Assembly (NCBI RefSeq): GCF_016903815.1
Contig: NZ_CP069974.1
Length of the DNA stretch: 64,000 bases
Reading direction: 5' to 3' (one strand)
Origin: Escherichia coli
GTDB taxonomy: Bacteria > Pseudomonadota > Gammaproteobacteria > Enterobacterales > Enterobacteriaceae
Part shown: piece after piece, positions 25,072 through 44,228 of the stretch
Layout of the letters: every line of letters begins with the position of its first letter
How positions within the stretch are numbered: the stretch's first letter is position 1
Notes under the pieces: model-generated
Database searches by the model: none
The model's input: the letters and a program-made list of their open reading frames with translations, nothing else
Told to the model about the DNA's origin: nothing
Position numbers and translations under genes: made by a program

Positions 25072-25868
<797 letters not shown>

Positions 25869-28529
25869 GTAGGGTAGGGTACGTGTGGTCTTTCAAGATA
25901 AATGGCGAATATGTCCTGCTTATCTTGAGTTAGATCACCGTTACCCCCCCTCCGAACCGTACGTGCACCTTTCAATGCATACGGCTCTCCATTGCTAGCT
26001 TATTGGGGATAAACTCATTTAGCAGAATCCCCACTTGAGACAGGTGGTTGCAGGAGTATTCTTCCCTTTTCCTGTCTCAGATCGGGTAGTTTTCCGCTAT
26101 GTAACTTGTCGTGGCAACTTGCGCACAAAATCATCGTTTTCCGGCGGCGTGCGATCATCATTAGTTGCCACAGGCTGGGTTTATATCCGGCCTTACGACC
26201 TTTCTTCAGGTCTTTTAGCTTTCTGACATGATGTACTTCGCAGCGCCCAGTCTTCGCACAATACTCGCAGATCCTTGCCCCTAATCGACGCATGATCTCT
26301 GTTGTGCGGGTTGTGATATGTGCGGTTCTCGGTTCCGTATCGACAATCGTTGTTCGGTTGCGATTGACATGTTTGAGTTTGAAAACCTCAATCTTTCGGG
26401 ATCCATTTTTGGCCTGAACGGTAATAGCCAGATCTCCATTATTTTGCCGTAGCGATTTGGCGACTTTATTCACTGAACTACGTCGTTTATTCGCTAGGGT
26501 CTTAAAAAGGCTTATTTGCCATATGAAATATAATTTTGATAATTTATATTTCATGTCCAGCGCCAGACTGTAGTAGTTCGCCAATCCGCGCATTTCCGCG
26601 TTGAAAGTCAGAACAATTTCAGCTTCACTGAGATTTTGTAGACTTGAACGATGTACAGCCTTCACATTCTCATAACAGCCATATTTCTTTTGGTGACAAA
26701 ATTTAGCGGCTATATTGTCAGGAACGAAGAGCTGCACAATTCCTGTGGTGGATCTCCGGAGAGCGTGCCGCCCTTGCATTTTCTGCTTCAGCAATTTCTT
26801 TGCATCTGCCTGTCTGATTTCATAGCCTAAAAAATTAACTCCTTCTGAGATATGGCGGATCCTGGTCTTTGCTTCATTAACTTCCAATCCCAGTGAAGTA
26901 GTAATAAAGTTTCTGACCTGTCTTGATATATGTTCAGCATCTTTCTTCGAGCCGATGACACCAATTACGAAGTCATCAGCATATCGAACATAGTACATAC
27001 GCCTGAAGTTTGGATCGTTCATGACCTGAGATGGTATAGAACGTTTTTCTTCAAGCAGTCGTTCAATTTCTTTCTTTATGGCTTCTTTTTCTGATTCAGA
27101 ATCAGTTGCCATACCGTCTACTTTCTTTCGTAGTTTATGAATCTTATGGGCCAGCCTGTTCATATCTGGATTCGCTCTTCGTTTTGTACCGCTTGTATAT
27201 GCAGGAATTAAGTTCTGTTCTACAAAACGGTCCAGTTTGTCGAGGTATATATTTGCCAGTAAGGGAGAAATTATCCCACCTTGTGGCGTGCCAGAATATG
27301 AGCGATGGTATTTCCAATTGTCCACATATCCTGCCTTCAGCCACTGTTCGATTAATTTCAGGAAATTCTTATCCTTAATTTTCTCTGCCAGTGTATTCAG
27401 CAATAGTTTGTGGGGGATATTGTCAAAGAAACCTTTGATATCAACATCCACGATCCATTTAACTCCGTTCCAGACTGGACGAATAGATCTGAGCGCAGTT
27501 TCACACGAACGTTTTGGTCTGAATCCATGAGAGTGTTCAGAGAATACTGGTTCATAAACCCTTTCCAGAATAATTCTTGCTACTTCTTGCGCCAGTTTAT
27601 CGTCTCCACCTGGAATCCCCAGCGGTCTGGTTTTTCCGTCCTTTTTTGGGATCTGAACTCTGCGTACAGGTTTCGCTACGTATTCTCTACTCCGCAATGT
27701 TTTTGCCAGCTTCTCTGCTCTTTCGATAGAGAAGCCATCAATGGTATCTGTTGATACACCTTGAGTCAGTGCACCTGCATTGGCCCGTATATTCACGTAG
27801 GCTTGCAGCCACAGTCCGGGCTCACACGCAATTTTGTATAGATTACGTACTGGATACCCTTTTTTTGAAGCATCCTCAATTCCATCTAATCTTTTCTCAA
27901 GTTCATCAGGCAGCATTGGCTAACCCTCCTCTTAGAGATTGATGTATCTAACAACTGTCTCCCTTCCCCGCAGCACTGTGAGGCTTTCATCTCCCTTCCG
28001 GTTGATTTATACCTTTGCTGCTTCCGTATAATGCGGACTGCCGTAGCCCATTACAGGCCGACCTTGAGTACTATGGAGACTCCGCTACCATGCTGGGTAT
28101 AAATCCAGTTTAGGTAGTCCCGTAGTTTCACGGTGTGGAGATGCGATGTACTTAGGATGTCTTTCGATCGTTTAACTATTTCATCAATAGCTGGCCCGTT
28201 AGAGTGGTCACAATCAACGTAGGGCGGATTTCTTGTGCTATTACGGGAATAACGCTTCAATCGTTCTGCGTTATTGGTTTCCTGTTTCCCACATAGATCT
28301 CGACTTCAACAAACCCAGTTTATCCATATACATCTTGCATTGAGTGGTGATACTTATAACGATTTCCGTATTCACCACCCTTTTCTGTGGATGCTATGTT
28401 CACCTCTCCTTTTCAGGATCTCCGAGCCTGTTACCAAGCGAGGCTAACCACAGTATGCAATGGCTATACCACTAAGCCATGTTGCTTTTCATGCAACACT
28501 CCATAAAACACCGCGCTTCAACGGCGCAC
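25869..28529 (-). mobile_element. group II intron (LtrA-like IEP, IIA-like) inserted in ssb in sense orientation
   Basis: Minus-strand 5' end GTGCGCCGTTGAAGCGCGG directly after ssb codon 13; IEP 26015-27916; canonical domain V GAGCCGTATGCATTGAAAGGTGCACGTACGGTTC at 25954-25987 (minus); 3' end ...CCTAC followed by ssb exon 2. Confidence 0.85.
26015..27916 (-). CDS. group II intron reverse transcriptase/maturase (LtrA-like) with C-terminal HNH-like domain
   Basis: YSGTPQGGIISPLLANIYL, YVRYADDFVIGV, maturase region, C-terminal CEYC...HH...CASCHDKLH; closely resembles Ll.LtrB LtrA by recall. Confidence 0.9.
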   Translation of the reverse strand: MLPDELEKRLDGIEDASKKGYPVRNLYKIACEPGLWLQAYVNIRANAGALTQGVSTDTIDGFSIERAEKLAKTLRSREYVAKPVRRVQIPKKDGKTRPLGIPGGDDKLAQEVARIILERVYEPVFSEHSHGFRPKRSCETALRSIRPVWNGVKWIVDVDIKGFFDNIPHKLLLNTLAEKIKDKNFLKLIEQWLKAGYVDNWKYHRSYSGTPQGGIISPLLANIYLDKLDRFVEQNLIPAYTSGTKRRANPDMNRLAHKIHKLRKKVDGMATDSESEKEAIKKEIERLLEEKRSIPSQVMNDPNFRRMYYVRYADDFVIGVIGSKKDAEHISRQVRNFITTSLGLEVNEAKTRIRHISEGVNFLGYEIRQADAKKLLKQKMQGRHALRRSTTGIVQLFVPDNIAAKFCHQKKYGCYENVKAVHRSSLQNLSEAEIVLTFNAEMRGLANYYSLALDMKYKLSKLYFIWQISLFKTLANKRRSSVNKVAKSLRQNNGDLAITVQAKNGSRKIEVFKLKHVNRNRTTIVDTEPRTAHITTRTTEIMRRLGARICEYCAKTGRCEVHHVRKLKDLKKGRKAGYKPSLWQLMMIARRRKTMILCASCHDKLHSGKLPDLRQEKGRILLQPPVSSGDSAK

Positions 28530-28568
28530 TCCTACGAGAATGACCTTGTTAATGCCACGAACTGCCAT
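28530..28568 (-). CDS. ssb: plasmid SSB, exon 1 (codons 1-13, MAVRGINKVILVG)
   Basis: RBS AGGAGG then ATG at 28568; 13 codons matching the SSB N-terminus, followed immediately by intron 5' GTGCG. Confidence 0.8.
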
Positions 28569-28595: not shown

Positions 28596-29177
28596 AGCCC
28601 CCATCATCTTTTGAGTTTCGGGAGCCGCGGTTTTGACGTTTTGCGGGGACCTGCCTTTTGTTCCCTCCGGTATTCACCATCACCTTTTTGAGAACCTTCG
28701 CCGCATGGGGCATCACTGCCACGGACGGAAACGACTGTCCGGGGGCAGACCGCAAAAGTTTTTGCCTGCTTCTGGGCAAAAAGTTTTGCGGGATGTGCAT
28801 TTCACCCCTGGACTGGCGGAGACGGTTGTGGCTGTCTTTGCCCCCGGCGACAGGGGCTTAAACAGGTGAATGGCACCGGACAGAACAACGGGCAGGGACC
28901 CGCCGCAACGACGTGAAGCGCGGTTTGCGAAACGGCGTTGCCCCTTACATCCCGGCGGTCTTTTGCCGGGATGCCAGGAGCGCAGGCCACGGCGCGACAG
29001 AGGCGGCGCGACCGGAACGGTCGCTGCAAGCCAGGGGTTTTCACGCATCGGACCGTAGCGACAGCCCGAAACCGCGCCAGCGGGTTCGGCGGAGACTGGC
29101 AGGTGCGCCAGCAGCTGCCTGTCGGAGTCGGGCCTGACGACCGGATGCCGCCAGGCAGCCGGGAGCCGAAGGTGCGC
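28596..29177. repeat. GC-rich structured repeat copy 2 (candidate Frpo/ssi-type ssDNA promoter) immediately upstream of ssb
   Basis: Near-identical to 16811-17392; begins ~28 nt upstream of the ssb start codon on the minus strand. Confidence 0.45.
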
Positions 29178-31561
29178 GTGCGACAGGAAGTCGCTTAACG
29201 TATTGTTTTACATTGATAAAACCAGCTATCCCATTAGCTGTAGCCTACCGGGACAGGCGTTGCCGGCAACGGCGGGGTCTGAAGCTCCCGGGACAACGAG
29301 AGCCGGGCGTCAGCCCGGGTAATGCCCCGTGAGGGGCTTTACCTTGCTGCAAGCATCATGCGGCAGGAGAGCAAGGCTGGTCAGAAGGGTTAACACATGT
29401 GAACTGTTGATAAACACCGTTATCGGCAACAGGCCAAAGATGCTGACAGGCCTGAACCAAAAGGTACGGGGTCCGGTTGCTACCTCGCGCACAGGGAGCA
29501 CATGGGCGCAGAGACCCCCGGTGAAGAGACAGAACCCGCCCTGACCCTCTGTATGTTAAGCGGAACCTGGTAAACCCGTATCGCTGCCTCACAGGCAGGT
29601 GAACCGCAAGGAACACTGTTAGCGGTGCGGGCATAGGAGGACGGAAAAAGCGAATGCCCGGCTGTAATAACCGGGATACGGGGCAGGTTCCCCGACGCGA
29701 AAGCGGGCAGACTTCCGTCTGGTCTTTAATTGCATGAAAAGCTGTAAAGCAGTCAAAAGGATATCAGCGAGATGAATACACACATCAGTGTGTCCACGAT
29801 ACCCCACCCGACAGGCTGGCACACCATAAACTGGAAAGCATGCCATGCCCGGGTGCGAAAGCTACAGTTACGGATTGCAAAGGCAACCCGACAGCAACAA
29901 TGGCGGCAGGTCAGAGAACTACAGCGCATCCTCACCCGCTCATTCTCCGGCAAAGCCGTGGCTGTCAGGCGTGTAACTGAAAATACCGGTAAAAGGACAC
30001 CCGGTATTGACGGAAAAATATGGCACACACCGAAGGAGAAATGGGAAGGAATATGCAGCCTGAATCTGTGTGGTTACAGGCCACAGCCACTACGGCGAAT
30101 ACATATCCCAAAATCAAACGGCAAAACGCGACCGCTGGGCATACCCACAATGAGGGACCGGGCCATGCAGGCACTGTGGCTGCTGGCTCTGGAACCCGTA
30201 TCCGAGACCACTGCTGACCATAACAGCTATGGTTTCAGACCAATGCGCAGCACGCATGACGCCATTGAGTCCATTTTTCTGCGGATGAGCCAGAAAGTAT
30301 CGCCCAAATGGATACTGGAGGGCGATATTAAAGGGTGCTTCGATAACATCAGCCATGACTGGCTGCTTTCCCATATTCCGATGGACAGGAGACTGCTTAA
30401 AAAATGGTTGAAAGCAGGTTACATGGAAAGAGGCGTGTTTAACCATACGAACAGCGGGACACCGCAGGGAGGCATCATATCCCCTGTTCTCGCCAACATG
30501 GCTCTGGACGGACTGGAGAAGGAACTGATGCAAACGTTCAGGAAAAGTGGTTATCACAGTGCAAAGCACCAGGTGAATTATGTGAGATATGCTGATGATT
30601 TCATCTGTTCAGGCAGCTCCCGTGAATTGCTGGAAAATGAGGTCAGACCACTGATTGCAGCTTTCATGCGCGAACGAGGGCTGGAACTGTCGGAAGAAAA
30701 AACAGCGATCACACATATAGATAAAGGCTTCGACTTTTTAGGGCAGAACGTCAGGAAGTACAACGGTAAAATGCTGATTAAACCGTCGAAGAAAAACCTG
30801 AAGAACTTCCTCTGTAAAGTCAGAGAAATAATTAAACGCAATCCGACGCTCCCGGCATGGAAACTGATAGGCCAGCTAAACCCGGTGATCCGGGGATGGG
30901 CTACCTATCACCGACACGTCGTGGCGAAAGAAACATTTAATTATGTCGACACCCAAATCTGGCGAGCTATATGGCGATGGTGTGTAAGACGGCATCCCCG
31001 GAAAGGATTGCGGTGGATCGCCGGACGATACTTCTCCTTTGAAGGCAGGCGCTGGATCTTTAAAGCCATAACCCCGGAAGGGAAAATTCTGACACTCTTC
31101 CGGGCAATGGAAACACCGATAAAGCGCCATATAAAAATCAAAGGCGAAGCAACACCATACACCCCCGGAATGGAAATCTACTTTGAACGTCGTCTGGATC
31201 TAATCTGGAAAGGCAAATCAAAGAAGATGAAGACAGTAGTTCAACTCTGGAAGAGGCAGGGGAAACACTGTCCGCAGTGCGGACAACTCATAACCAACCA
31301 GACCGGATGGAATATACATCACCGGATCAGGAAAGTTATGGGCGGCAGTGACGAACTGACCAATCTCGAGTTGTTACATCCGAACTGCCACCGACAGTTA
31401 CACAGCAGGGAAGCCGGTGCTCACCGAAAGCACTTATAAAGGCTTGAGCGGAGTGCGGGGAAACTCGCACGCTCCGTTCTTAGGGGGCGGCGGCGCAGCA
31501 ATGTGCCGCTGCTACCCGACCCGGCAGACAGGACAACACTGCAGTAGTCAGAATCAGAGCA
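29178..31561 (+). mobile_element. group II intron copy 2
   Basis: Identical to copy 1 across the IEP and flanking RNA domains; same junction with the upstream repeat. Confidence 0.75.
29772..31439 (+). CDS. group II intron-encoded RT/maturase/HNH (copy 2)
   Basis: 555-aa protein identical to the copy 1 IEP. Confidence 0.9.
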   Translation: MNTHISVSTIPHPTGWHTINWKACHARVRKLQLRIAKATRQQQWRQVRELQRILTRSFSGKAVAVRRVTENTGKRTPGIDGKIWHTPKEKWEGICSLNLCGYRPQPLRRIHIPKSNGKTRPLGIPTMRDRAMQALWLLALEPVSETTADHNSYGFRPMRSTHDAIESIFLRMSQKVSPKWILEGDIKGCFDNISHDWLLSHIPMDRRLLKKWLKAGYMERGVFNHTNSGTPQGGIISPVLANMALDGLEKELMQTFRKSGYHSAKHQVNYVRYADDFICSGSSRELLENEVRPLIAAFMRERGLELSEEKTAITHIDKGFDFLGQNVRKYNGKMLIKPSKKNLKNFLCKVREIIKRNPTLPAWKLIGQLNPVIRGWATYHRHVVAKETFNYVDTQIWRAIWRWCVRRHPRKGLRWIAGRYFSFEGRRWIFKAITPEGKILTLFRAMETPIKRHIKIKGEATPYTPGMEIYFERRLDLIWKGKSKKMKTVVQLWKRQGKHCPQCGQLITNQTGWNIHHRIRKVMGGSDELTNLELLHPNCHRQLHSREAGAHRKHL

Positions 31562-31577: not shown

Positions 31578-31616
31578 CAGTAGCAGTAGCAGTAGCAGTA
31601 GCAGTAGCAGTAGCAG
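31578..31616. repeat. hexanucleotide simple sequence repeat (CAGTAG)x6
   Basis: cagtagcagtagcagtagcagtagcagtagcagtagcag directly 3' of intron copy 2; not expanded at the equivalent position after copy 3. Confidence 0.9.
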
Positions 31617-31791: not shown

Positions 31792-32355
31792 TCAGGCACG
31801 CAGACGAATAATCATCGTCGGGACATCGGTATAAGCAAACGTGCCGCGCGGCAGCTCCTCGCGGACGTCAGAAAACGGTAACAGCTTCTCCTGCTGGCGT
31901 GGTCCGTTGAGACAGACGGCGACCAGCACGCCACCCGGACGCAACAGGGAAAAGGCCCGCAGGATATGCCGGATATCCTGCCCGTGGCTGAACGGCGGAT
32001 TCATGATAACCCGGCTGTAATACTGCACCGGCAGCCATTCCATGAAGTCGCCACACTGAACCCTGACACCGTTAAAATTTTCCCGCAGATACCGGACCAG
32101 CCCGCTGTTGATTTCCACCGCATCACACATGGCCCCCGGCGCGGTATCCCGAATCGCCCGCAGTATGGCCCCGGTGCCGGCAGAGGGTTCCAGAATGTGA
32201 TCACGGTTGCTGATCTCCGCCAGCATCACCAGGCGATCACAGACCGGGGCAGGAGTCACAAAAAGCTGAGATTCAGCCCGGATTTCAGCAACCGGCGCGG
32301 CGTTATCCAGCCTTGCGCGCATCAGCCGGATACGTTCTCTTAACTGACTGTGCAT
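31792..32355 (-). CDS. small orphan methyltransferase (putative DNA N6-adenine MTase)
   Basis: 187 aa with AdoMet motif EPSAGTGA followed by NPPF motif; no adjacent restriction gene. Confidence 0.6.
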   Translation of the reverse strand: MHSQLRERIRLMRARLDNAAPVAEIRAESQLFVTPAPVCDRLVMLAEISNRDHILEPSAGTGAILRAIRDTAPGAMCDAVEINSGLVRYLRENFNGVRVQCGDFMEWLPVQYYSRVIMNPPFSHGQDIRHILRAFSLLRPGGVLVAVCLNGPRQQEKLLPFSDVREELPRGTFAYTDVPTMIIRLRA

Positions 32356-32402
32356 ATCATTATCTCCGTCATCCCCCGGGGATTTTCCCGGGGGGATATA
32401 CC

Positions 32403-33764
32403 TTATTTCTGTGGGATTTCCGTGATTTTCATGTCGGAGATATACACATTCACCAGGCGGAAATTATTGTCCATTGTGCGGCGGTACCGGTATGCCCCGT
32501 GGTCTTCTGCTTCTGCCACACTGCGCACGGCCTTACAGTCCCGGGGCAGGGCGGCCCACTGTGCCTTTGTCATTTCCCGGAAACCTTCCCCCGGATAGTT
32601 GACTACCGGCGGACGCTTCGCGGCCTGACTGGCGACGGCAGCCTCTTCTGCCGATGGTGCTTTGTAGTCCGTGATGCGATCGGGCGTCACTTTCATCGTG
32701 CCGCTGTACCCGAGAAAACTGTAATTTGGCGTTGTGACTGAACTCACCGCCCCGTTGCTTTTGTTCACACGGATGATGGTCAGCCACTCGCCCCGGCTGA
32801 AAACCTGTCCGCCCGGCTCAAAATCCTGTGTCCGGGTAACCACGCCGCCGCTTTCGTCCAGCATGGCACGCTCATAGATCAGGCGGTTCTGATAGTGGTT
32901 AACCCAGCGTTGTTGATGCTGAATCTGCCGTTCATGACAGCGGATCGCAATTTCGCGGGCCTGCTCCGTGGTGATGATGTCATCATCCAGGGCCGACCAT
33001 AACGATCGACTTCCTTCATACTGGCTTTTTTCTGCCGGGCGCGGATACGTATCCAGCGGGAAACAGGCGCTGATATGGTCATGACTGCTGATGAGTTTTG
33101 CCATATTCAGATCCAGCGATTCAGCCCGCCACATCGTCAGATATTTCTGCGACTGCGCGATGGTCTTTTCAGCCTTGCGCAAATCAGCTTCGATTTTTTT
33201 GATACGACGCCAGCGAACGTCCGGACGTTCTTTATACTTCGCGTGAAGCAGTGCCGACCGCGCCCGCTCTTCCCAGTATTCCGCACGTTCAAAGAGCATC
33301 ACGGCTCGTTTCATGCCGTTTTCAATACGCTGCGCATCACGACGGGCGCGGCGTTCGCTGTGATGCCCCACAAGAATGGGCTGACCGGGCGGGATCATCG
33401 CGGCCAGTCTTTCCACTTCATCAAGTGCCTGTGCGGATTCACTGGCCCGCTTTCCGCTGTATCCGGTAAACCGCTCCGCCCGTGCTTCCTGACGTTCAGC
33501 GAGCGTGCTGTCTTCATCCTCAATCTCTCCGGCAAGTGAGAGGAGCACGTCTTCCCGGCCCGGTGTCCAGGCTGGCGCGACAAACAGCGCCTGTTTTGGT
33601 GCCCAGCGGAAACCGGCATCATGCACTTTTTTATACGTCTCCGGGTCAAGACGTGACACGGCATACAGGCGCAGTTTGTTGTCATCCGGTGAGTAGGTCG
33701 CGCGGTACATCTGCACAGGGCTGGCGGCTTCCGGGGCGGTCATGGTGATTGCTGCTAATGTCAT
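32403..33764 (-). CDS. hypothetical leading-region protein (453 aa)
   Basis: Long basic/acidic ORF with coiled-coil-like central region; same strand as the neighbouring methyltransferase. Confidence 0.5.
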   Translation of the reverse strand: MTLAAITMTAPEAASPVQMYRATYSPDDNKLRLYAVSRLDPETYKKVHDAGFRWAPKQALFVAPAWTPGREDVLLSLAGEIEDEDSTLAERQEARAERFTGYSGKRASESAQALDEVERLAAMIPPGQPILVGHHSERRARRDAQRIENGMKRAVMLFERAEYWEERARSALLHAKYKERPDVRWRRIKKIEADLRKAEKTIAQSQKYLTMWRAESLDLNMAKLISSHDHISACFPLDTYPRPAEKSQYEGSRSLWSALDDDIITTEQAREIAIRCHERQIQHQQRWVNHYQNRLIYERAMLDESGGVVTRTQDFEPGGQVFSRGEWLTIIRVNKSNGAVSSVTTPNYSFLGYSGTMKVTPDRITDYKAPSAEEAAVASQAAKRPPVVNYPGEGFREMTKAQWAALPRDCKAVRSVAEAEDHGAYRYRRTMDNNFRLVNVYISDMKITEIPQK

Positions 33765-33815
33765 AAAATGTTCTCCTTCCGTCTGTTGCCGCCCCTCGCG
33801 GGGCGGCTCACCTCA

Positions 33816-34046
33816 TCAGTTAAAAGCGCGTTTCAGTTCGAGTGTGCGGAGCACCTGCCCGAAGGCCGTGTTTTTCATGGCGGGGATGTGTACACCACGC
33901 CCCCGGTGAAAACTCCGGGCAATGTGTCGCCCGAAGGCTTTCAGCACGGGGTCAATTTCCGGCGCGGGGATGTCTTCGCGTCTGAAACGGGGATGACGGC
34001 GGGGCTTTACAGCCGCTGCGGAAGGTGAAACAATACTTACTGTCAT
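33816..34046 (-). CDS. small hypothetical leading-region protein (76 aa)
   Basis: ORF downstream (minus strand) of repeat copy 3; no motif recognised. Confidence 0.35.
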   Translation of the reverse strand: MTVSIVSPSAAAVKPRRHPRFRREDIPAPEIDPVLKAFGRHIARSFHRGRGVHIPAMKNTAFGQVLRTLELKRAFN

Positions 34047-34284
34047 AATTTAGCCTCTTATGACGTTAATTAATGAAACCGTAAAGACTGTTCGTGCAGT
34101 CTCTGCGGTGTGGATTAAGCAGGTCCCTGACCTGCTTTTTTCATATCTGCGTCTGACGTTCTCCGGTGTTTTCCTCCTTCTGTTCCTGCGTTCTCATTAC
34201 CTGCCAGCCGGATGACTGACAGAACACATAAATGCGTATTGCCGGAGCCTGAAATAAATCCTGATTTTTAAAGAACATCACCCG

Positions 34285-34848
34285 TTGAGTTTCGGGAGCC
34301 GCGGTTTTGACGTTTCGCGGGAACCTGCTGCTGTATACCCTGTGGTATGAACTTCACCCGTTTGAGAACCTTCGCCGCAAGGGGCATCACTGCCACGGCC
34401 TGACGCACCTGTCCTGGGCAGAACGCAAAATTTTTTACCGGGTTTTGGGTAAAAAATTTTGTGGGCTGTTCATTTACCCTGGACAGTCAGTGCGGCAGGT
34501 TGTGGCTGTATCAGCCCCAGGCGACAGGGACTCATACGGGTGTGTGGCACCGGCAGGCAATGAGCAGGGACCCGCCGCAACGACGGAGAGCGCGTGCGCG
34601 AAACGGCGTTGCCCCTTACATCCCGGCGGCCTTTTGCCGGGATGCCGGGAGCGCAGGCCACGGCGCGACAAGGGTGGCGCGACCGGAACGGTCGCTGCAA
34701 GCCCGGGGTTTTCACGCATCGGACCGTAGCGACAGCCCGAAACCGCGCCAGCGGGTTCGGCGGAGACTGGCGGGTGCGCCAGCAGCTGCCTGTCGGAGTC
34801 GGGCCTGACGACCGGATGCCGCCAGGCAGCCGGGAGCCGAAGGTGCGC
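34285..34848. repeat. GC-rich structured repeat copy 3 (diverged 5' part)
   Basis: Homologous to 16825-17392; first ~250 nt heavily substituted, remainder near-identical; abuts intron copy 3. Confidence 0.45.
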
Positions 34849-37233
34849 GTGCGACAGGAAGTCGCTTAACGTATTGTTTTACATTGATAAAACCAGCTAT
34901 CCCATTAGCTGTAGCCTACCGGGACAGGCGTTGCCGGCAACGGCGGGGTCTGAAGCTCCCGGGACAACGAGAGCCGGGCGTCAGCCCGGGTAATGCCCCG
35001 TGAGGGGCTTTACCTTGCTGCAAGCATCATGCGGCAGGAGAGCAAGGCTGGTCAGAAGGGTTAACACATGTGAACTGTTGATAAACACCGTTATCGGCAA
35101 CAGGCCAAAGATGCTGACAGGCCTGAACCAAAAGGTACGGGGTCCGGTTGCTACCTCGCGCACAGGGAGCACATGGGCGCAGAGACCCCCGGTGAAGAGA
35201 CAGAACCCGCCCTGACCCTCTGTATGTTAAGCGGAACCTGGTAAACCCGTATCGCTGCCTCACAGGCAGGTGAACCGCAAGGAACACTGTTAGCGGTGCG
35301 GGCATAGGAGGACGGAAAAAGCGAATGCCCGGCTGTAATAACCGGGATACGGGGCAGGTTCCCCGACGCGAAAGCGGGCAGACTTCCGTCTGGTCTTTAA
35401 TTGCATGAAAAGCTGTAAAGCAGTCAAAAGGATATCAGCGAGATGAATACACACATCAGTGTGTCCACGATACCCCACCCGACAGGCTGGCACACCATAA
35501 ACTGGAAAGCATGCCATGCCCGGGTGCGAAAGCTACAGTTACGGATTGCAAAGGCAACCCGACAGCAACAATGGCGGCAGGTCAGAGAACTACAGCGCAT
35601 CCTCACCCGCTCATTCTCCGGCAAAGCCGTGGCTGTCAGGCGTGTAACTGAAAATACCGGTAAAAGGACACCCGGTATTGACGGAAAAATATGGCACACA
35701 CCGAAGGAGAAATGGGAAGGAATATGCAGCCTGAATCTGTGTGGTTACAGGCCACAGCCACTACGGCGAATACATATCCCAAAATCAAACGGCAAAACGC
35801 GACCGCTGGGCATACCCACAATGAGGGACCGGGCCATGCAGGCACTGTGGCTGCTGGCTCTGGAACCCGTATCCGAGACCACTGCTGACCATAACAGCTA
35901 TGGTTTCAGACCAATGCGCAGCACGCATGACGCCATTGAGTCCATTTTTCTGCGGATGAGCCAGAAAGTATCGCCCAAATGGATACTGGAGGGCGATATT
36001 AAAGGGTGCTTCGATAACATCAGCCATGACTGGCTGCTTTCCCATATTCCGATGGACAGGAGACTGCTTAAAAAATGGTTGAAAGCAGGTTACATGGAAA
36101 GAGGCGTGTTTAACCATACGAACAGCGGGACACCGCAGGAAGGCATCATATCCCCTGTTCTCGCCAACATGGCTCTGGACGGACTGGAGAAGGAACTGAT
36201 GCAAACGTTCAGGAAAAGTGGTTATCACAGTGCAAAGCACCAGGTGAATTATGTGAGATATGCTGATGATTTCATCTGTTCAGGCAGCTCCCGTGAATTG
36301 CTGGAAAATGAGGTCAGACCACTGATTGCAGCTTTCATGCGCGAACGAGGGCTGGAACTGTCGGAAGAAAAAACAGCGATCACACATATAGATAAAGGCT
36401 TCGACTTTTTAGGGCAGAACGTCAGGAAGTACAACGGTAAAATGCTGATTAAACCGTCGAAGAAAAACCTGAAGAACTTCCTCTGTAAAGTCAGAGAAAT
36501 AATTAAACGCAATCCGACGCTCCCGGCATGGAAACTGATAGGCCAGCTAAACCCGGTGATCCGGGGATGGGCTACCTATCACCGACACGTCGTGGCGAAA
36601 GAAACATTTAATTATGTCGACACCCAAATCTGGCGAGCTATATGGCGATGGTGTGTAAGACGGCATCCCCGGAAAGGATTGCGGTGGATCGCCGGACGAT
36701 ACTTCTCCTTTGAAGGCAGGCGCTGGATCTTTAAAGCCATAACCCCGGAAGGGAAAATTCTGACACTCTTCCGGGCAATGGAAACACCGATAAAGCGCCA
36801 TATAAAAATCAAAGGCGAAGCAACACCATACACCCCCGGAATGGAAATCTACTTTGAACGTCGTCTGGATCTAATCTGGAAAGGCAAATCAAAGAAGATG
36901 AAGACAGTAGTTCAACTCTGGAAGAGGCAGGGGAAACACTGTCCGCAGTGCGGACAACTCATAACCAACCAGACCGGATGGAATATACATCACCGGATCA
37001 GGAAAGTTATGGGCGGCAGTGACGAACTGACCAATCTCGAGTTGTTACATCCGAACTGCCACCGACAGTTACACAGCAGGGAAGCCGGTGCTCACCGAAA
37101 GCACTTATAAAGGCTTGAGCGGAGTGCGGGGAAACTCGCACGCTCCGTTCTTAGGGGGCGGCGGCGCAGCAATGTGCCGCTGCTACCCGACCCGGCAGAC
37201 AGAACAACACTGCAGTAGTCAGAATCAGAGCAG
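34849..37233 (+). mobile_element. group II intron copy 3
   Basis: Identical to copies 1 and 2 except a single substitution in the IEP. Confidence 0.75.
35443..37110 (+). CDS. group II intron-encoded RT/maturase/HNH (copy 3, Gly to Glu substitution in RT motif)
   Basis: GTPQEGIISP instead of GTPQGGIISP (gga to gaa); otherwise identical to copies 1 and 2. Confidence 0.9.
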   Translation: MNTHISVSTIPHPTGWHTINWKACHARVRKLQLRIAKATRQQQWRQVRELQRILTRSFSGKAVAVRRVTENTGKRTPGIDGKIWHTPKEKWEGICSLNLCGYRPQPLRRIHIPKSNGKTRPLGIPTMRDRAMQALWLLALEPVSETTADHNSYGFRPMRSTHDAIESIFLRMSQKVSPKWILEGDIKGCFDNISHDWLLSHIPMDRRLLKKWLKAGYMERGVFNHTNSGTPQEGIISPVLANMALDGLEKELMQTFRKSGYHSAKHQVNYVRYADDFICSGSSRELLENEVRPLIAAFMRERGLELSEEKTAITHIDKGFDFLGQNVRKYNGKMLIKPSKKNLKNFLCKVREIIKRNPTLPAWKLIGQLNPVIRGWATYHRHVVAKETFNYVDTQIWRAIWRWCVRRHPRKGLRWIAGRYFSFEGRRWIFKAITPEGKILTLFRAMETPIKRHIKIKGEATPYTPGMEIYFERRLDLIWKGKSKKMKTVVQLWKRQGKHCPQCGQLITNQTGWNIHHRIRKVMGGSDELTNLELLHPNCHRQLHSREAGAHRKHL

Positions 37234-37423
37234 CAGATAAAGGAACAACAACATCAGGAACAGTTCCATAACATAAGAAAGAAACACTCCTGAGTCAGAC
37301 ACATCACAGACGGGAAGGGTAACGGGCGACGCGCCAGCGTGGCCCGCTTCCCTTCCGGCAGGCGTCAGCCTGCCAGGGGTTTTCGCGCGGACTGACAGGC
37401 GGCCTCCACCGCCTGCCCCTGTA

Positions 37424-37615
37424 TCACCTGTTTCTGCTACCCTGTAAGATGTAGTGACCGCCCAGGAAAACCGCCTGCTGATTCGCCACAAAATCGCAGA
37501 TTTCATCAACAATCTGCGCGGTGGTGAGCGGTTTCTGCCCCATTTCACGACGCCGCGCATTAATCACGGCCCTGTAATTACGCAGAATTTCGCGGGTTTC
37601 TGTGCTGATATTCAT
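37424..37615 (-). CDS. small hypothetical protein (63 aa)
   Basis: ORF with stop/start overlap to the upstream 140-aa gene. Confidence 0.35.
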   Translation of the reverse strand: MNISTETREILRNYRAVINARRREMGQKPLTTAQIVDEICDFVANQQAVFLGGHYILQGSRNR

Positions 37616-38034
37616 GACATCGTCTCCCCGTCCAGCGCCTGTAACACAACGTCCATTGCTTCGCGTTCCTCCCTGACGAATGCGTCACCGTCGCCCCCGT
37701 TCTCACTCCCGACGGCATACAGGCGCTTCATTTCACTGCCTGCCAGCGCCATCACTTTTTCCAGCATCACCGCCGGGACTGTCACCTGACGGCTGGCGCG
37801 CTTTTCTTCCATCAGTTCACGAACAACGCCGTGAACAACGCTGACATCCGCACCATATTCAAAGGCATCGTCCAGCCGCTGCATGACGGTTTCCAGCTCA
37901 TCGTCTGTCAGACTCCAGTCCTGGGCTATGTGACGCACATCCCCACGGGTCAGCACTACGGCAAAAACGCATTCACTGTCCGGCACGTCTGTATCCAGCA
38001 CTTCGCGGATAATTTCTTTAACAGTACAGTACAT
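37612..38034 (-). CDS. hypothetical acidic leading-region protein, paralog of 39750-40184
   Basis: 140 aa; shares an RQVTVPA..L motif and overall architecture with the 144-aa ORF at 39750-40184. Confidence 0.5.
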   Translation of the reverse strand: MYCTVKEIIREVLDTDVPDSECVFAVVLTRGDVRHIAQDWSLTDDELETVMQRLDDAFEYGADVSVVHGVVRELMEEKRASRQVTVPAVMLEKVMALAGSEMKRLYAVGSENGGDGDAFVREEREAMDVVLQALDGETMS

Positions 38035-38080
38035 GTTCTCGTCTCCTTTACAGGGGCGGCATTGCCGCCCCGTCCGTTAA

Positions 38081-38506
38081 TCAGTCCAGAGCCGCGTAAA
38101 TCGCGTTGCATTCGGGGTGAAATTCGATGTGACGCCACAACTGCGCATCGCGCATCCGGTAAAGCTGGGTCAGTCCTGCATCCCCGCTGTCGTGGTACAG
38201 CCACAACTGGCGGTTAATCACAAGGGAGGTCAGGATGATGCCTGCGGCATCAGCACTCACGGTACGGTCAAACCAGTTTGCACCGTTCACCATGTGGAAA
38301 CGGTCGCCATCCGGCATCATGTAACCGCCACCGTCCGGCAGGCGGATGAAGTGCCAGAAGCCTCCCTGATATTCCGGCATCATTTTTTGCGCCAGCGCGT
38401 ACACATACGCCTCGGCATACAGAAAATCGTTGCCAAACAGATACGGCAGAAAGGAGAGACGGTCGCACTCTTCAACATTCAGAGTGACAGGTTTCGCATA
38501 TTGCAT
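38081..38506 (-). CDS. putative antirestriction protein (ArdB/KlcA-like)
   Basis: 141 aa, size and leading-region position typical of KlcA/ArdB; family assignment by recall only. Confidence 0.4.
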
Positions 38507-38922
38507 GATGTTTTCCTCCGTTGTTCACATATTCCGCGACACCGGGCGGTGCCGTGCCTCCATAAAAGCCGGGCGAACAGGCGGGGATGCAGGGGCGCAA
38601 GGGAAGCCGCAGCCTGACGCACACGGCTGACGGGAGTTGCAGGGTGAGACCGCGAAATCTGAGCGGGTGAACGACCGGAAAATCACGGCAGACGGGAAGG
38701 AGGGACCGGGTGACCGCAGCGGCGAAGCGTACCCTTGCATCAACGCCAGCCCGGCTAAGATGGAGGCACGGCACAGCCCGCACACGACGCTGAGGCCACA
38801 TAACTGAAAAACCACAAGGCCATGCCCTGCATGGCCGGGTAAAGCGGAGCCGGCGGCGACTTCCTTTGTGCTCTGTCCGGGGACCGGCAGGAAAAAGGCG
38901 GGGATTTACCCCGCCAGTGTCA
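38507..38922. promoter_or_regulatory. GC-rich region with long imperfect inverted repeat (candidate ssDNA promoter-type hairpin) upstream of the ArdB-like gene
   Basis: Arms CCGGGCGGTGCCGTGCCTCCATAAAAGCCGGGCG (about 38540-38575) and GCCCGGCTAAGATGGAGGCACGGCACAGCCCG (about 38748-38785) are reverse-complementary. Confidence 0.35.
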
Positions 38923-39699
38923 TCATTTCCGGATTTTTGCCAGGGCATCCGCCATGCTGCGGATTTCGGTCCGGGCTTCCCGGACCACCTCCCGCAGAAC
39001 ACCACGGTCAAACCAGCGGCGGGGCGGTTCATCCGGTATACGCAGCACATCGCAGGCCAGCCCACTGGACAGGATATGCTCAATACACTCACTGACCAGA
39101 TACATTTCCACCGACGAAAAACGTGCTCCCCGGTTCACGATGGCATCGAGCACCACGGGCAGGTTTTCGTCATCTTCATCGAGCCAGCAGGGGTGATCGC
39201 TTTCCTTCACGACCAGGCGAAAGCGGCGCGTCTGGCGGGTCAGCAACGTCTGACCGGTGGTGGTCAGCGCCGCACGGATACGCCGCGCATCTTCTGCCAC
39301 CTGGTAACAGATGCTTCGTACCGCATCGTGCACCGCATCAAGAACAGCCCTGATTTCGTCTTCGGTCAGCCATTCTCCGGCATACGGGAAAGACACCTGC
39401 GTTCCGTCTGCCGGAAGTACCGGCAGCGACTGCCACTGACTGCCGGACAGTACCAGTTCCGCCCCGGTTCCGGTCAGTCTCTGAATGGCGGAGGCCAGGA
39501 GCGGCGGCAGTACGCCGCCGTGACGGTTGATAAGTAACGTCGCCAGCCGGGGCGCATCCAGCCGCACGTAAATGCTGATCCAGCCCGGATAGTTCGGATT
39601 TCGCTGGTCAACATCCGTCTCTTCCGGCCAGCCCTGCGCCAGCAGCAGGTTACGGGCGTGACGACAAATCAGTGCGTTCAGCGTGCTGTTTTCGTTCAT
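38923..39699 (-). CDS. hypothetical leading-region protein
   Basis: ORF from [14 protein letters not shown]...; no recognised motif. Confidence 0.45.
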
Positions 39700-39749
39700 G
39701 ATTAAGCGTTCTCCCTGTATCGCCGCCCGCAGGGCAGGCGGCGATAACA

Positions 39750-40184
39750 TCAGTTGTTTTCGTGTGTGTTGTTTTTCAGCAGGGTGCGGGCCTGATTAAC
39801 CACCGCCTGACGGCGGGTAACGCATTCCGGGACGGCGAGGCCGTTATCACGGGCGGCCCACTCACGTTTCCACAGTGCCTGTTCAGCGGTCTGAATCAGG
39901 GACGCCAGCAGTTCAGCAGGGACGGTCACCTGGCGGTTTTCGCTCACGTTGCTGATAATCTCCATCACCGCGGCGGAAGAAATACCGGATTCAGTCCGCT
40001 GGTCTTCCGGGATGTCCTCCATGCGCGCCAGGACGGTCCTGATTTCATGATCGGTCAGAGAAATTTCCATACCGTCAGCCAGTGCCTGAATCTCTTCCGG
40101 GGACCAGATAACCAGCATCAGCGGCGCGTCTCCCGGATACTTTGCTGCCAGCTCCCGGCATAGCGTTTCGCATGTTCCGTACAT
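39750..40184 (-). CDS. hypothetical acidic leading-region protein, paralog of 37612-38034
   Basis: 144 aa, shares the [10 protein letters not shown] motif with the 140-aa ORF. Confidence 0.5.
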
Positions 40185-40197
40185 TCTCGTCTCCTTC

Positions 40198-40419
40198 TCA
40201 ATCTTTGAAGCAGGAATCCAGTTCCAGAATTTCGGTATACGCCTCCATAAACAGGCGATTGGCGCGATACAGCGTCTGGCGTGTCAGGCGTTCAACAAGC
40301 ACATCGGAATCAAAGCGACAGCGATGCTCCATATCGTTCAGCCTGGCCCGAAGGTCACACATGGTGTTGGCCACCTCCGCCACGTCGGCGCGAAGTTTTT
40401 CGTGTCCGGCATAGTTCAT
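40198..40419 (-). CDS. small hypothetical protein (73 aa)
   Basis: ORF immediately downstream (minus strand) of the orphan methyltransferase. Confidence 0.4.
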   Translation of the reverse strand: MNYAGHEKLRADVAEVANTMCDLRARLNDMEHRCRFDSDVLVERLTRQTLYRANRLFMEAYTEILELDSCFKD

Positions 40420-41103
40420 TTACGCAGCCTCCGGCATAAACCAGTCATCATTCGCGGCCCCCTGCTGCATGGCCCGTTGCACGGCGGCAAGGCGTTGCTG
40501 CCCGGCACGGTGATACTGCTCAAGCAGCTCGATACCGATATACCGGCGTCCGGACTGGAGGGCGGCGACGCAGGTTGAGCCGCTGCCTGCAAACGGGTCC
40601 AGCACAATTGCGTTCGGGTGTGTGAAGCTCTCAATCAGCGGTTGCAGGCTGGTAACGGGCTTTTCCGTCGGGTGATGACGATTGCCAGAATATTTCCAGC
40701 CCAGCACGTCCGGCAGCGGGTTTTGTGGCAGACGTGGACGGCCTTTTGCCAGGATGTAGGCGCATTCGTGGCGATAGCCCACATATGCGGCCTTCGATGT
40801 GTAGTTTTTGGTGAAGACCAGGTGACCAACAACGCTGAATCCCGCATTTTTCCAGGCGGCCATAAAGCGATCGACGCGGTTCCAGCCGTAGAAGCTCACC
40901 ATCAGCGCGTCTTTTTTGAGTACGCGGTACATTTCATTACAGGCCGGTTGCAGCCATTCATCGGTTTTATCGCCGGCGATGGTGCGCCCGGAACGGTCAC
41001 GAAAACCGACGAGATATGGCGGGTCAGTTAATATGAAATCAATGGCGTTATCAGGGATACGCGTCATAACATCGATGCAGTTACCAAGGACAAAACGGGA
41101 CAT
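40420..41103 (-). CDS. orphan DNA methyltransferase (DPPY motif, N6A/N4C type)
   Basis: 227 aa with DPPY catalytic motif near the N-terminus and FAGSGST AdoMet-binding motif later; no cognate restriction gene. Confidence 0.75.
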   Translation of the reverse strand: MSRFVLGNCIDVMTRIPDNAIDFILTDPPYLVGFRDRSGRTIAGDKTDEWLQPACNEMYRVLKKDALMVSFYGWNRVDRFMAAWKNAGFSVVGHLVFTKNYTSKAAYVGYRHECAYILAKGRPRLPQNPLPDVLGWKYSGNRHHPTEKPVTSLQPLIESFTHPNAIVLDPFAGSGSTCVAALQSGRRYIGIELLEQYHRAGQQRLAAVQRAMQQGAANDDWFMPEAA

Positions 41104-41487
41104 AACAACGCTCCTTCTCTTACAGAGGGCACCGGGAGGGCCCCCCTGTGGTGCCCGTTCCCCGCTGCCTGTGGGCTGTTCACCGCGTCCGGTAACGGGT
41201 CAGGCCGACCGTGGAATATCGCAGCCGTCGTCTTTTTGACGGCGAGAATATGCCGCGAAAGCGGCTTGAAGGGCGTTCATCAGAAAAGGGCGACAGGCTG
41301 GCGTACACTGTCACCGGTGCCAGCCGGGAGCAGTAAAAGCGCCCGTCCCGTGCCCGCCGGACGCGGGACACTGACCACAGGCAGCGTTCCTGCCGCGCCG
41401 CGTCAGCCGGCGCAGTAAAAAGAGGAGCACGGCGACATCCTTTGTCGGAAAAGAAACGGGCGGTTGCCCGCCCGTCTCCGTCATACT

Positions 41488-42414
41488 TCATCCCCCGTAA
41501 TGCGCCACCTTGTCGACTATCCACTCCGGCGCGGTGACTTCCGGCAGCTCATCATCATCTGTCGGGGAAGACCATTCCAGTTCCCCCCACAGCACATCAA
41601 CAAGCTCTCCACGCTCATATCGCTGCCAGCCACAGAAATTGCAGCCCTGTTCGGCGTACCAGTGCTCCAGCGTGCAGCCGAAACGGCGGCTTAATTCTGC
41701 AACAACGTTGCTTTCCGGCTGACACCACGGCGTGTCGAAATCCACTTGAATGAAGTTTTCTCCCTGACGGCTGATATTCACCTCATACCCCACAGGCCAC
41801 TTCACGCCATACTGTTCCGTATACCAGTGATACGCAGAAGGAACACCGTTCAGAACACCACCGTTAAAGCCATTCACTTCAACATCCAGGCGGGTGGGCA
41901 GAACCGTCAGCAGGTCAAACGGCATGGTTTTTTCCGGCAGTACATTGTCACACAGACGGTTCCACCACACCGATACATCCTCGTTACTCCAGAAGCCACA
42001 CCAGTCACCTCTTTTTGCGGTGAAATGCACGGTGATGGTTTCCCTGACCTCATCCGGTAATCCTTCCCAGCGACGCTGGCCAGTACCACTCTGCAGCCAG
42101 AGTTCATGCAGCATCAGGCAGTTTTGCTCATCCAGCAGTACACCGTTCTGCAGGTGTGTCAGCCAGCGGGTGAACGCGATATTCTCCGGCGATACAACAC
42201 CACGTCCGGCATCCGTCAGTCCGGGGCACGGTTCAAACTGCACATCTTCAGTGGTCTGCAGAAGTCCGGCACTTCCGGCCAGAAACAGCTGAATACCTTC
42301 ATTTGTGGCGCGGCGATAAAGCGGTGTGACGGCACCGCTGGCCAGTCGTTTAATCTCAGCAATCTGTGCCGGTTCACCAGAAAAATGCATACGATTCGAG
42401 CACCAGTTTGGCAT
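41488..42414 (-). CDS. hypothetical leading-region protein (from MPNWCSNRMHF...)
   Basis: ORF with Trp/Cys-rich sequence; no motif recognised. Confidence 0.45.
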   Translation of the reverse strand: MPNWCSNRMHFSGEPAQIAEIKRLASGAVTPLYRRATNEGIQLFLAGSAGLLQTTEDVQFEPCPGLTDAGRGVVSPENIAFTRWLTHLQNGVLLDEQNCLMLHELWLQSGTGQRRWEGLPDEVRETITVHFTAKRGDWCGFWSNEDVSVWWNRLCDNVLPEKTMPFDLLTVLPTRLDVEVNGFNGGVLNGVPSAYHWYTEQYGVKWPVGYEVNISRQGENFIQVDFDTPWCQPESNVVAELSRRFGCTLEHWYAEQGCNFCGWQRYERGELVDVLWGELEWSSPTDDDELPEVTAPEWIVDKVAHYGG

Positions 42415-42785
42415 GGGAATTCTCCTCTCACATGCGGCCTCCATCAGGCCGTGCCGCACCTGTAACCGGGCGACCGCATACGAATGCAGGTGCGGCCCCG
42501 AAGCCGCAGCGCGTGGAGGAGGAACGACGAAACGTGACCGGGTGAGGAGGCCGGCGACAGCGACACACTTGCATCGGATGCAGCCCGGTTAACGTGCCGG
42601 CACGGCCTGGGTAACCAGGTATTTTGTCCACATAACCGTGCGCAAAATGTTGTGGATAAGCAGGACACAGCAGCAATCCACAGCAGGCATACAACCGCAC
42701 ACCGAGGTTACTCCGTTCTACAGGTTACGACGACATGTCAATACTTGCCCTTGACAGGCATTGATGGAATCGTAGTCTCACGCTG

Positions 42786-43256: not shown

Positions 43257-44228
43257 TCAGGGTGCTGGCTTTTCAAGTTCCTTAAGAATGGCCTCAATTT
43301 TCTCTATACACTCAGTTGGAACACGAGACCTGTCCAGGTTAAGCACCATTTTATCGCCCTTATACAATACTGTCGCTCCAGGAGCAAACTGATGTCGTGA
43401 GCTTAAACTAGTTCTTGATGCAGATGACGTTTTAAGCACAGAAGTTAAAAGAGTGATAACTTCTTCAGCTTCAAATATCACCCCAGCTTTTTTCTGCTCA
43501 TGAAGGTTAGATGCCTGCTGCTTAAGTAATTCCTCTTTATCTGTAAAGGCTTTTTGAAGTGCATCACCTGACCGGGCAGATAGTTCACCGGGGTGAGAAA
43601 AAAGAGCAACAACTGATTTAGGCAATTTGGCTGTGTTGATACAGCGGGTAATAATCTTACGTGAAATATTTTCCGCATCAGCCAGCGCAGAAATATTTCC
43701 AGCAAATTCATTCTGCAATCGGCTTGCATAACGCTGACCACGTTCATAAGCACTTGTTGGGCGATAATCGTTACCCAATCTGGATAATGCAGCCATCTGC
43801 TCATCATCCAGCTCGCCAACCAGAACACGATAATCACTTTCGGTAAGTGCAGCAGCTTTACGACGGCGACTCCCATCGGCAATTTCTATGACACCAGATA
43901 CTCTTCGACCGAACGCCGGTGTCTGTTGACCAGTCAGTAGAAAAGAAGGGATGAGATCATCCAGTGAGTCCTCAGTAAGCAGCTCCTGGTCACGTTCATT
44001 ACCTGACCATACCCGAGAGGTCTTCTCAACACTATCACCCCGGAGCACTTCAAGAGTAAACTTCACATCCCGACCACATACAGGCAAAGTAATGGCATTA
44101 CCGCGAGCCATTACTCCTACGCGCGCAATTAACGAATCCACCATCGGGGCAGCTGGTGTCGATAACGAAGTATCTCCAACCGGTTGAGTATTGAGCGTAT
44201 GTTTTGGAATAACAGGCGCACGCTTCAT
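43257..44228 (-). CDS. sopB: SopB (ParB-type partition protein)
   Basis: 323 aa matching F SopB by recall; adjacent to sopA and sopC. Confidence 0.9.

Follow-up and report, generated by a model that had tools for sequence, protein, structure and literature searches.

What does the dense group of small genes at positions 31792-42414 of a 64,000-nucleotide (nt) stretch of Escherichia coli DNA (contig NZ_CP069974.1 of assembly GCF_016903815.1; the whole stretch is called the window below) do for the plasmid that carries it? An initial annotation, made from the sequence alone, placed this interval in the leading region, on the first-transferred side of the origin of transfer (oriT), and saw in it a cluster of anti-defence candidates in which two unrelated orphan methyltransferases, one with an NPPF and one with a DPPY motif, might protect the plasmid in advance from restriction by the recipient. 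We find that the interval makes up the half of the leading region that lies farther from oriT in an F-type conjugative plasmid and that it is very probably an island for anti-defence and establishment, expressed transiently in the recipient, in which the NPPF methyltransferase and the neighbouring DUF3560 protein make up one split enzyme. The underlying picture of a leading-region island of anti-defence candidates, templated by the strand that enters the recipient (the T-strand), agrees with published work (PMC11541004, PMC7736820, PMC4288162, PMC12672017). Earlier work on near-identical sequences has already described, and in part tested, the island with its promoters and main methylase, and this copy brings no new principle; what is added here to known work is the split/fusion relationship of DUF3560 and the NPPF methyltransferase.

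The window belongs to an IncF (FIA/FIB/FII) E. coli plasmid, its best matches being IncFIA/FIB/FII plasmids of the same species. The 12 kb around the interval are found at 90-100% identity in more than 5000 plasmid records, mainly conjugative IncF plasmids of Escherichia, Klebsiella, Salmonella and Shigella, and because the region recurs so often a chance arrangement is not an issue. An R100-type nic sequence, GCGTAGTGTGT/GGTGCTTTTGG (the slash marks the nick, 14659/14660), reads directly on the plus strand. The form GCGTAGTGTGT/GGTGCTTTTGGTGGTGAGAACCACCAACC at 14659-14660, likewise read directly on that strand, is what we take, from established knowledge of the F and R100 oriT, to be the F/R100 nic site, and a longer reading is TTTGCGTAGTGTGT/GGTGCTTTTGGTGGTGAGAACCACC, again on the plus strand and with the same nick position. 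With nic on the plus strand, it follows that the T-strand is the plus strand and templates the minus-strand genes. Its 5' end lies at 14660, it enters 5'-first toward higher coordinates, and it is the template for every minus-strand gene between 14.7 and 42.5 kb, which bears out the earlier proposal that the genes of the interval, all on the minus strand, are transcribed from the incoming strand.

Long hairpins in the T-strand stand ahead of these genes. Folding of T-strand DNA in a 300-nt sliding window, a method repeated from PMC12672017, gave a mean of -47.5 kcal/mol (standard deviation 12.9), with minima of -91.9 at 16800-17619, -92.0 at 28600-29399, -86.5 at 34240-35099, -80.2 at 38480-38839 and -87.3 kcal/mol at 41100-41519. 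The three at the lowest coordinates correspond to Frpo-type (class 1) elements that are 88-98% identical to the two F elements. The one inside the interval (34276-34710, plus strand; fold z score -5.4, z scores here comparing individual folds with shuffles) lies upstream of an operon consisting of a gene for a protein of 76 amino acids (aa), the DUF3560 gene and the NPPF methyltransferase gene, and shares 92.5% identity with the F element that immediately precedes ssb. A class 2 hairpin upstream of klcA (38507-38922, plus strand; -103 kcal/mol, z -4.4) is 94% collinear with plasmid pESBL and 95% identical to the hairpin upstream of ardA in pESBL, and a class 3 hairpin directly upstream of the DPPY methyltransferase (41104-41490, plus strand; -106.5 kcal/mol, z -6.2), the strongest T-strand hairpin of the interval, is 94% identical to pESBL. 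Positions 37353-42702 are collinear with pESBL at 94.4% as a whole, including both promoter regions mapped there: rapid amplification of 5' complementary DNA ends (5'RACE) located single-strand promoters ahead of M.EcoGIX (class 3) and of klcA (class 2) in pESBL, and the F operons of KlcA and M.EcoGIX homologues are induced or enriched in transconjugant RNA (PMC12672017). An open reading frame (ORF) of 103 aa (41180-41491, minus strand; isoelectric point (pI) 11.5), publicly annotated as "hypothetical protein", overlaps the hairpin at 41104-41490 and is probably a mis-annotation of promoter structure rather than a gene.

We propose that the plus strand would enter 5'-first from the nic at 14660 and that its long hairpins would act as promoters for host RNA polymerase before the complementary strand is synthesized. 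Three units may be driven in this way: the M.EcoGIX orthologue, followed by YubE, DUF1380 and YchA, from the class 3 hairpin at 41104-41490; klcA, DUF1380 and a 63-aa gene from the class 2 hairpin at 38507-38922; and the 76-aa gene, DUF3560 and the NPPF methyltransferase from the Frpo-type class 1 element at 34276-34710. The M.EcoGIX orthologue would place N6-methyladenine on the entering single strand with little sequence preference, leaving the later duplex hemimethylated at many restriction sites, and KlcA, as predicted for this copy, would block Type I restriction. The NPPF protein would supply the catalytic Rossmann core only, and the DUF3560 protein most likely the substrate binding. Single-strand methylation, protection from restriction and early induction have been shown by others on orthologues and may be expected here by analogy. 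Our reading draws on the clustering of KlcA with the M.EcoGIX orthologue, the nearby PsiB and SSB, the 92.5% Frpo homology and the hairpins.

The DPPY protein (227 aa; 40420-41103, minus strand; Pfam N6_N4_Mtase, E 1.9e-40), present in the interval as first described, is a beta-class N6-adenine DNA methyltransferase. It scores 501 bits against NCBIfam PRK13699 (cut-off 244), carries DPPY at residues 27-30 and FAGSG at 171-175, which is the beta-class order with the catalytic motif N-terminal, and has as its nearest solved relatives in the Protein Data Bank (PDB) the beta-class enzymes CcrM, RsrI and those of the DpnA type. Compared with pESBL-EA11 54782-55465, the gene of M.EcoGIX (PMC4288162), 216 of the 227 residues are identical (95%, over the full length), none of the eleven substitutions falls in the catalytic motifs, and the DPPY...FAGSG layout is the same. 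The two loci are alike as well in their flanking genes (DUF1281, YubE, DUF1380, YchA and klcA), in the hairpin ahead at 94% DNA identity, and in orientation relative to oriT; they differ in the host plasmid, which is IncF here and IncI1 for pESBL. The gene also lies in the leading region, on a T-strand template and behind a class 3 hairpin. From these comparisons we regard it as the M.EcoGIX orthologue, in a group that includes YfbB of R64, YfeA of F and M.EcoMVIII of pEC958.

M.EcoGIX is a promiscuous, nearly non-specific enzyme that forms N6-methyladenine in the SAY context on single strands; its methylation in vivo is asymmetric, its target early in conjugation is the incoming strand, and its homologues are numerous in IncI1 and IncF leading regions (PMC7736820). 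Its deletion lowers the transfer of pESBL into recipients carrying EcoGIII or EcoRI (PMC4288162). Because these deletion data exist, the experiment suggested in the initial annotation, conjugation of methyltransferase deletion mutants into restricting recipients, has in effect already been done on a near-identical protein. The idea of protection by methylation holds up to this extent for the DPPY enzyme, through its 95%-identical relative; for the NPPF enzyme, sequence and fold alike give a mixture of DNA, RNA and protein methyltransferases as neighbours. A more distant parallel is DpnA of Streptococcus pneumoniae, which belongs to the same beta-class fold family and follows a common logic, in that DNA arriving as a single strand is methylated ahead of duplex formation, but DpnA is GATC-specific, lies within a restriction-modification cassette and serves transformation rather than conjugation.

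KlcA, the third candidate named at the outset, was likewise found in place (141 aa; 38081-38506, minus strand). It matches the KlcA/ArdB anti-restriction family over its full length (Pfam Antirestrict, PF03230, E 1.5e-26, 92.8 bits against a cut-off of 25) and the solved structures of KlcA (2kmg, E 1.8e-18) and ArdB (2wj9, E 3e-7). In family, structural match and leading-region location it resembles KlcA of IncP and ArdB of IncN plasmids, from which it differs in belonging to a separate IncF/IncI subfamily, "KlcA-HS" in Samuel et al.; the mechanism of the family is still debated in the literature.

The NPPF protein (187 aa; 31792-32355, minus strand; Pfam MTS, E 1.5e-6) is a class I S-adenosylmethionine (SAM) methyltransferase with a gamma-like motif order, and it too was correctly located. 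Its motifs QLFVTP (residues 30-35), EPSAGTG (motif I, 56-62) and NPPF (motif IV, 119-122) follow the gamma-class order X-I-IV, opposite to that of the DPPY enzyme, and the similarity of the two proteins is limited to the short SAM-binding and catalytic motifs. They are thus unrelated and differently ordered, as had been stated, but the further step to different specificities fails, since motif order marks class (beta versus gamma-like) and not sequence specificity. The protein is found in more than 5000 plasmid records, R100 included, and QLFVTP, EPSAGTG, MNPPF, GPRQQ and FxYT are conserved in 25 homologues down to 51% identity. Its AlphaFold2 (AF2) model (predicted local distance difference test score, pLDDT, 88) consists of a Rossmann core only; the chain ends about 65 residues past motif IV, and no target-recognition domain is seen in the model.

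Which substrate such a minimal enzyme acts on can be approached from its relatives, and we think it somewhat probable, from the balance of these matches, that the target is DNA adenine. By sequence, its best match in the PDB is to the catalytic domain of M.TaqI, a DNA adenine methylase (E 1.4e-5, motifs covered), and the alignment takes in the N-terminal TP motif typical of the gamma class. Two PHROG families named DNA methyltransferase match at E 8e-31 and 9e-24, the names being uncurated, and the strongest family matches (E ~1e-31) are to modules inside giant phage proteins. Over its whole 180 residues one such module, in a 3066-aa protein of a Vibrio podophage, is 34% identical, and because this phage protein combines the methyltransferase module with LPD38 we count it among the polyvalent proteins as defined by Iyer et al. 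2017. Methyltransferase modules of polyvalent proteins have been read as DNA adenine methylases directed against restriction (PMC5512222).

The alternative is that the enzyme, with or without DUF3560, modifies RNA or protein and not DNA, its target being RNA of the host or the plasmid (ribosomal or transfer RNA, at N6-adenine or N2-guanine) or a protein glutamine, in which case it would be a factor for establishment or host manipulation instead of an anti-restriction enzyme. The sole Pfam family over its cut-off, MTS (28.4 versus 23 bits), is generic and of the RsmC/RlmG type of small methyltransferase domain; no DNA-methylase family model scores above its curated threshold, and Pfam N6_Mtase is not reported for this protein. 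Weak NCBIfam matches lead to Erm, KsgA and PrmC, Foldseek places TrmN, Dim1, ErmE and Trm11 near M.TaqI in a mixed neighbourhood that also holds HsdM, PacII-M and Erm, annotation based on KEGG calls about 20% of the family 23S rRNA dimethyltransferase, and the 187 residues leave the enzyme without a target-recognition domain. These RNA and protein matches, however, fall far under curated cut-offs (Erm, for example, at 31 versus 212 bits), and the M.TaqI match, the phage modules with the two PHROG families, and the placing of the gene among DNA-entry functions all argue for DNA, so that we consider an RNA or protein target unlikely. An Erm-type resistance gene was considered separately and rejected, the protein being about 180 bits under the cut-offs and missing the RNA-binding C-terminal domain.

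The second point on which the initial annotation must be amended is the word "orphan", which does not hold for the NPPF enzyme. Directly upstream of its gene, 47 nt away, is the gene of the DUF3560 protein YdbA (453 aa; 32403-33764, minus strand; Pfam DUF3560, E 5e-37), and in diverged enterobacterial leading regions, at 53-56% identity, DUF3560 is always directly upstream of the small methyltransferase. Searching exhaustively, and without a profile, with this 453-aa protein gave 3883 cluster representatives, of which we examined the best 150. A C-terminal homologue of the NPPF methyltransferase was present in 101 of them, in the order DUF3560 then methyltransferase in every case (101/101) and with NPPF kept in 95. 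Among representatives spanning at least 380 residues, 83 of 107 (78%) are fused. The fused proteins have a median length of 675 aa, near 453 + 187, their C-terminal domains are 35-41% identical to the NPPF methyltransferase by BLASTP, and Pfam confirms the architecture in eight of the ten representatives examined.

The NPPF methyltransferase is thus not a free-standing orphan but the catalytic half of a split DUF3560-methyltransferase enzyme, with the DUF3560 protein probably its non-catalytic partner. If the two were mere neighbours, working independently, the fusions would have to be artefacts of annotation or assembly, and some fused entries among very close relatives (582 aa, 98-99% identical) probably are products of a frameshift or of assembly. 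That explanation is very unlikely for the whole set: the fusions occupy 83 of 107 distinct 50%-identity clusters with order and motifs conserved, the split pair is still adjacent at 53-56% identity, and in finished plasmids of at least nine genera (Denitratisoma, Pseudomonas, Acidovorax, Cupriavidus, Comamonas, Diaphorobacter, Pandoraea, Alicycliphilus and Paraburkholderia) the fusion aligns by tblastn as a single uninterrupted piece. Conjugative plasmids of Betaproteobacteria and Pseudomonas carry the fusion as a single ORF of about 640-680 aa, set in arrays with ssb, DUF932, kleA and radC; in pALIDE201 (NC_015423.1), examined in detail, the array is co-directional and the fusion is annotated as one 679-aa ORF at 8926-10965. 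Matches in Enterobacterales mostly align in two pieces and are annotated as two genes, and metagenomic fused homologues are surrounded only by arrays of unannotated co-directional genes. One fused representative bears the name Bradyrhizobium.

What the DUF3560 half contributes is approached through its AF2 model (pLDDT 89.6), which combines a small alpha/beta domain with a long bundle of helices and a C-terminal domain rich in beta structure; compared with solved structures it gave no significant fold match, and none to known recognition domains. A literature search turned up no functional studies of DUF3560 or of DUF1380. We infer that the DUF3560/NPPF unit methylates DNA adenine. A bolder view would make the pair an uncharacterised two-subunit enzyme and a second modification system of the leading region, mechanistically distinct from M.EcoGIX, in which the DUF3560 scaffold might serve to place the catalytic core on the incoming strand or, alternatively, the mark might be something other than N6-methyladenine in DNA, such as a change at guanine-N2 or cytosine-N4 of single-stranded DNA or a mark on host RNA; this we hold to be quite doubtful. 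In Samuel et al. 2024, DUF3560 is family 28 of the leading-region-enriched families (1913 members, median position 12, structure flag "methyltransferase domain protein"), and family 26 (1957 members, median position 11) is the NPPF methyltransferase, going by size and position.

The split pair invites comparison with the polyvalent proteins of Iyer, Burroughs, Anand, de Souza and Aravind (2017), whose modules share homology with the NPPF enzyme and are predicted early-entry effectors; on the DUF3560 side, one relative carries LPD29. The pair differs from them in consisting of a free 187-aa protein and a separate DUF3560 protein, without a SNF2 helicase and without LPD36. The functional archetype of the modules is DarB of phage P1, and the likeness seen here is to the modules in general.

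The first gene of the operon encodes a basic protein of 76 aa (33816-34046, minus strand; pI 11.9; WP_000218642.1 in relatives). An Rfam match to AS-pc01 ("antisense to pHK01_035") at 34041-34140 on the plus strand (98.9 bits, cut-off 79) overlaps its start and is a possible antisense regulator of the DUF3560/methyltransferase operon. A third methyltransferase (PF02384, 276 aa) lies nearer oriT in the leading regions of some enterobacterial plasmids.

The remaining genes of the interval, all on the minus strand, are less easily placed. The acidic proteins announced in the initial annotation are indeed there (pI 4.3-5.6): a DUF1380 paralogue of 140 aa (37612-38034; pI 4.3; Pfam E 5.7e-5, under the gathering score; phrog_9024), a YchA-like protein of 258 aa (38923-39699; pI 5.6; phrog_8919, Samuel et al. 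family 10) for which no Pfam match was found, a DUF1380 protein of 144 aa (39750-40184; pI 4.7; Pfam E 5.5e-53), a YubE-family protein of 73 aa (40198-40419; pI 5.3; phrog_4830, with PF27407 YubE in homologues at the same position) and a DUF1281/Api92-like protein (41488-42390; pI 4.6; Pfam DUF1281 and DUF1281_C, PDB 2ijr E 1e-46). Two basic small ORFs had been missed, the 76-aa protein and a 63-aa protein (37424-37615; pI 9.8; annotated in relatives) encoded by the last gene of the klcA operon.

By their company, the unassigned acidic proteins may be taken to act against defences. They are strongly enriched in leading regions, they are co-transcribed with proven anti-restriction genes, and their acidity is compatible with DNA-mimic inhibitors, a property that is merely suggestive. 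It is nonetheless a serious possibility, though not the likelier one, that most of the unassigned genes (the two DUF1380 genes, YubE, YchA, DUF1281 and the 63-aa and 76-aa genes) have other roles in establishment, such as host reprogramming, DNA processing or control of the SOS response, or are dispensable. None matches a known anti-defence family in Pfam, NCBIfam or PHROG; YfjB, a conserved leading-region protein now renamed HerB, is reported to reprogram host transcription; deletions in leading-region operons can raise transfer or leave it unchanged, depending on the host (PMC10104558); and in transposon sequencing (TnSeq) of pESBL the genes are dispensable for transfer to a laboratory recipient (table in PMC4288162).

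Several observations weigh against our reading of the interval as a whole. The methylation, expression and conjugation effects that it invokes are carried over by analogy from orthologues on other plasmids. The 76-aa/DUF3560/NPPF operon, present in R100, is absent from F and pESBL, the plasmids with early-transcriptome data, and its induction is deduced solely from the Frpo-type element upstream. The DUF3560 protein is without a recognisable DNA-binding fold, RNA and protein methyltransferase families match the NPPF enzyme about as well as DNA ones do, and YfjB/HerB shows that a leading-region protein once assumed to be anti-defence can be reported to act on host transcription instead.

Set beside known systems, the interval resembles the islands of Samuel et al. 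(Nature 2024) in lying on the first-transferred side of oriT with all genes T-strand-templated, and it contains several of their leading-region-enriched families besides the two discussed above: DUF1380 (families 7 and 14), the DPPY-type adenine methylase (8), KlcA (9), YchA (10) and DUF1281 (27). It shares with those islands, and with the Frpo/ssi zygotic-induction regions of F and ColIb-P9, the mix of methyltransferases, KlcA, SSB and PsiB, and likewise the Frpo-type elements and the class 2 and class 3 hairpins. It differs from them in having grown from about 17 to about 28 kb through four group II intron copies and an insertion sequence (IS) element, and in its interrupted ssb. Leading-region islands help to decide whether resistance plasmids become established against restriction, CRISPR and SOS barriers, and are therefore targets for blocking plasmid spread. 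For the second methyltransferase family, carried on thousands of IncF and Klebsiella plasmids, the split relationship is a concrete and testable lead, and the enzyme should be studied with its DUF3560 partner and not alone.

Outside the interval, the window reads from low to high coordinates as follows, on the minus strand unless stated. The tra operon (traM at 13944-14327, then traJ, traY, traA and so on) is followed by oriT and gene X on the plus strand, by DUF932 (15557-16459) and a 95-aa gene, and by hok and an IS3-family element. Next come psiA, psiB, the ParB-like yfjB, DUF905 and ssb, then the interval itself (NPPF methyltransferase, DUF3560, 76-aa gene, 63-aa gene, DUF1380, klcA, YchA-like, DUF1380, YubE, DPPY methyltransferase and DUF1281), and after it the sopC repeats, sopB, sopA and repE. 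The genes psiA, psiB, yfjB/herB and the DUF905 gene yfjA occupy 21843-25356 (Pfam PsiA, PsiB, ParB_N with HTH_ParB, and DUF905). Three genes that had been counted among those of the interval in fact lie 6-10 kb below it, on the oriT side: psiB at 22559-22996, yfjB at 23048-25066, and ssb at 25368-25868 with a 39-nt first exon at 28530-28568. The ParB-like YfjB, besides lying outside, does not fit the anti-defence role first given to it, in view of its reported action on host transcription; another ParB-family protein, SopB (43257-44228), is found just above the interval. The extent of about 10 kb is right for the interval, but the leading region measures about 28 kb here, and about 11 kb of it are mobile-element insertions, namely three copies of an intron designated A, an intron B and the IS element.

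The interval itself contains one of these insertions, which went unnoticed at first: positions 34849-37191, 22% of its length, are a group II intron on the opposite strand (2343 nt, plus; Rfam RF02012 and RF00029; a reverse transcriptase with an HNH domain). It is the third copy of intron A, the others lying at 17393-19735 and 29178-31520 on the same strand, and the three are identical or one base apart. Its sense is that of the T-strand, antisense to the leading-region genes, and it has no part in the function of the island. It occurs in 1067 plasmid records. Each copy is inserted at the same point, 137 nt past an Frpo-type repeat; R100 has the empty site (5' exon ...GAAGGTGCG, 3' exon CCGGCAGACAG), and plasmids of Klebsiella, Enterobacter and E. 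coli that carry a single copy have it at the third site. About 200 nt of conserved sequence, ending 3-6 nt before the insertion point, form a module that also occurs twice in pESBL, which fits a report that this intron moved, in the course of experimental evolution, from the leading region of an IncF plasmid into that of an IncI plasmid. Three independent homing events were considered for the copies here and rejected, as copies 1 and 2 have an identical upstream flank of 590 bp, which includes a 137-nt segment found in R100 only at the third site. The identical flank therefore makes recombination between Frpo repeats the more likely route, and from the sequence copies 1 and 2 probably spread in that way.

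Intron B (25869-28529, minus strand, 2661 nt; Rfam RF00029) encodes a 633-aa reverse transcriptase and is unrelated to intron A. It lies in sense orientation within ssb (25368-28568, minus strand), which, by comparison with F, it splits after codon 13, between codons 13 and 14; the joined exons encode a 179-aa SSB. Early SSB from the incoming strand would depend on splicing of this intron, an arrangement present in at least 417 plasmid records.

The IS3-family element (about 20290-21728, minus strand; two ORFs, 173 and 283 aa) sits between hok/flm and psiA, where it replaces about 80 bp present in F. A perfect (CAGTAG) x 6.5 repeat occupies 31578-31616, between the 3' end of the second intron A copy and the NPPF methyltransferase, and in R100 a (CAA)n run follows closely after the empty intron site that corresponds to copy 3; simple repeats thus seem to recur beside intron A sites.

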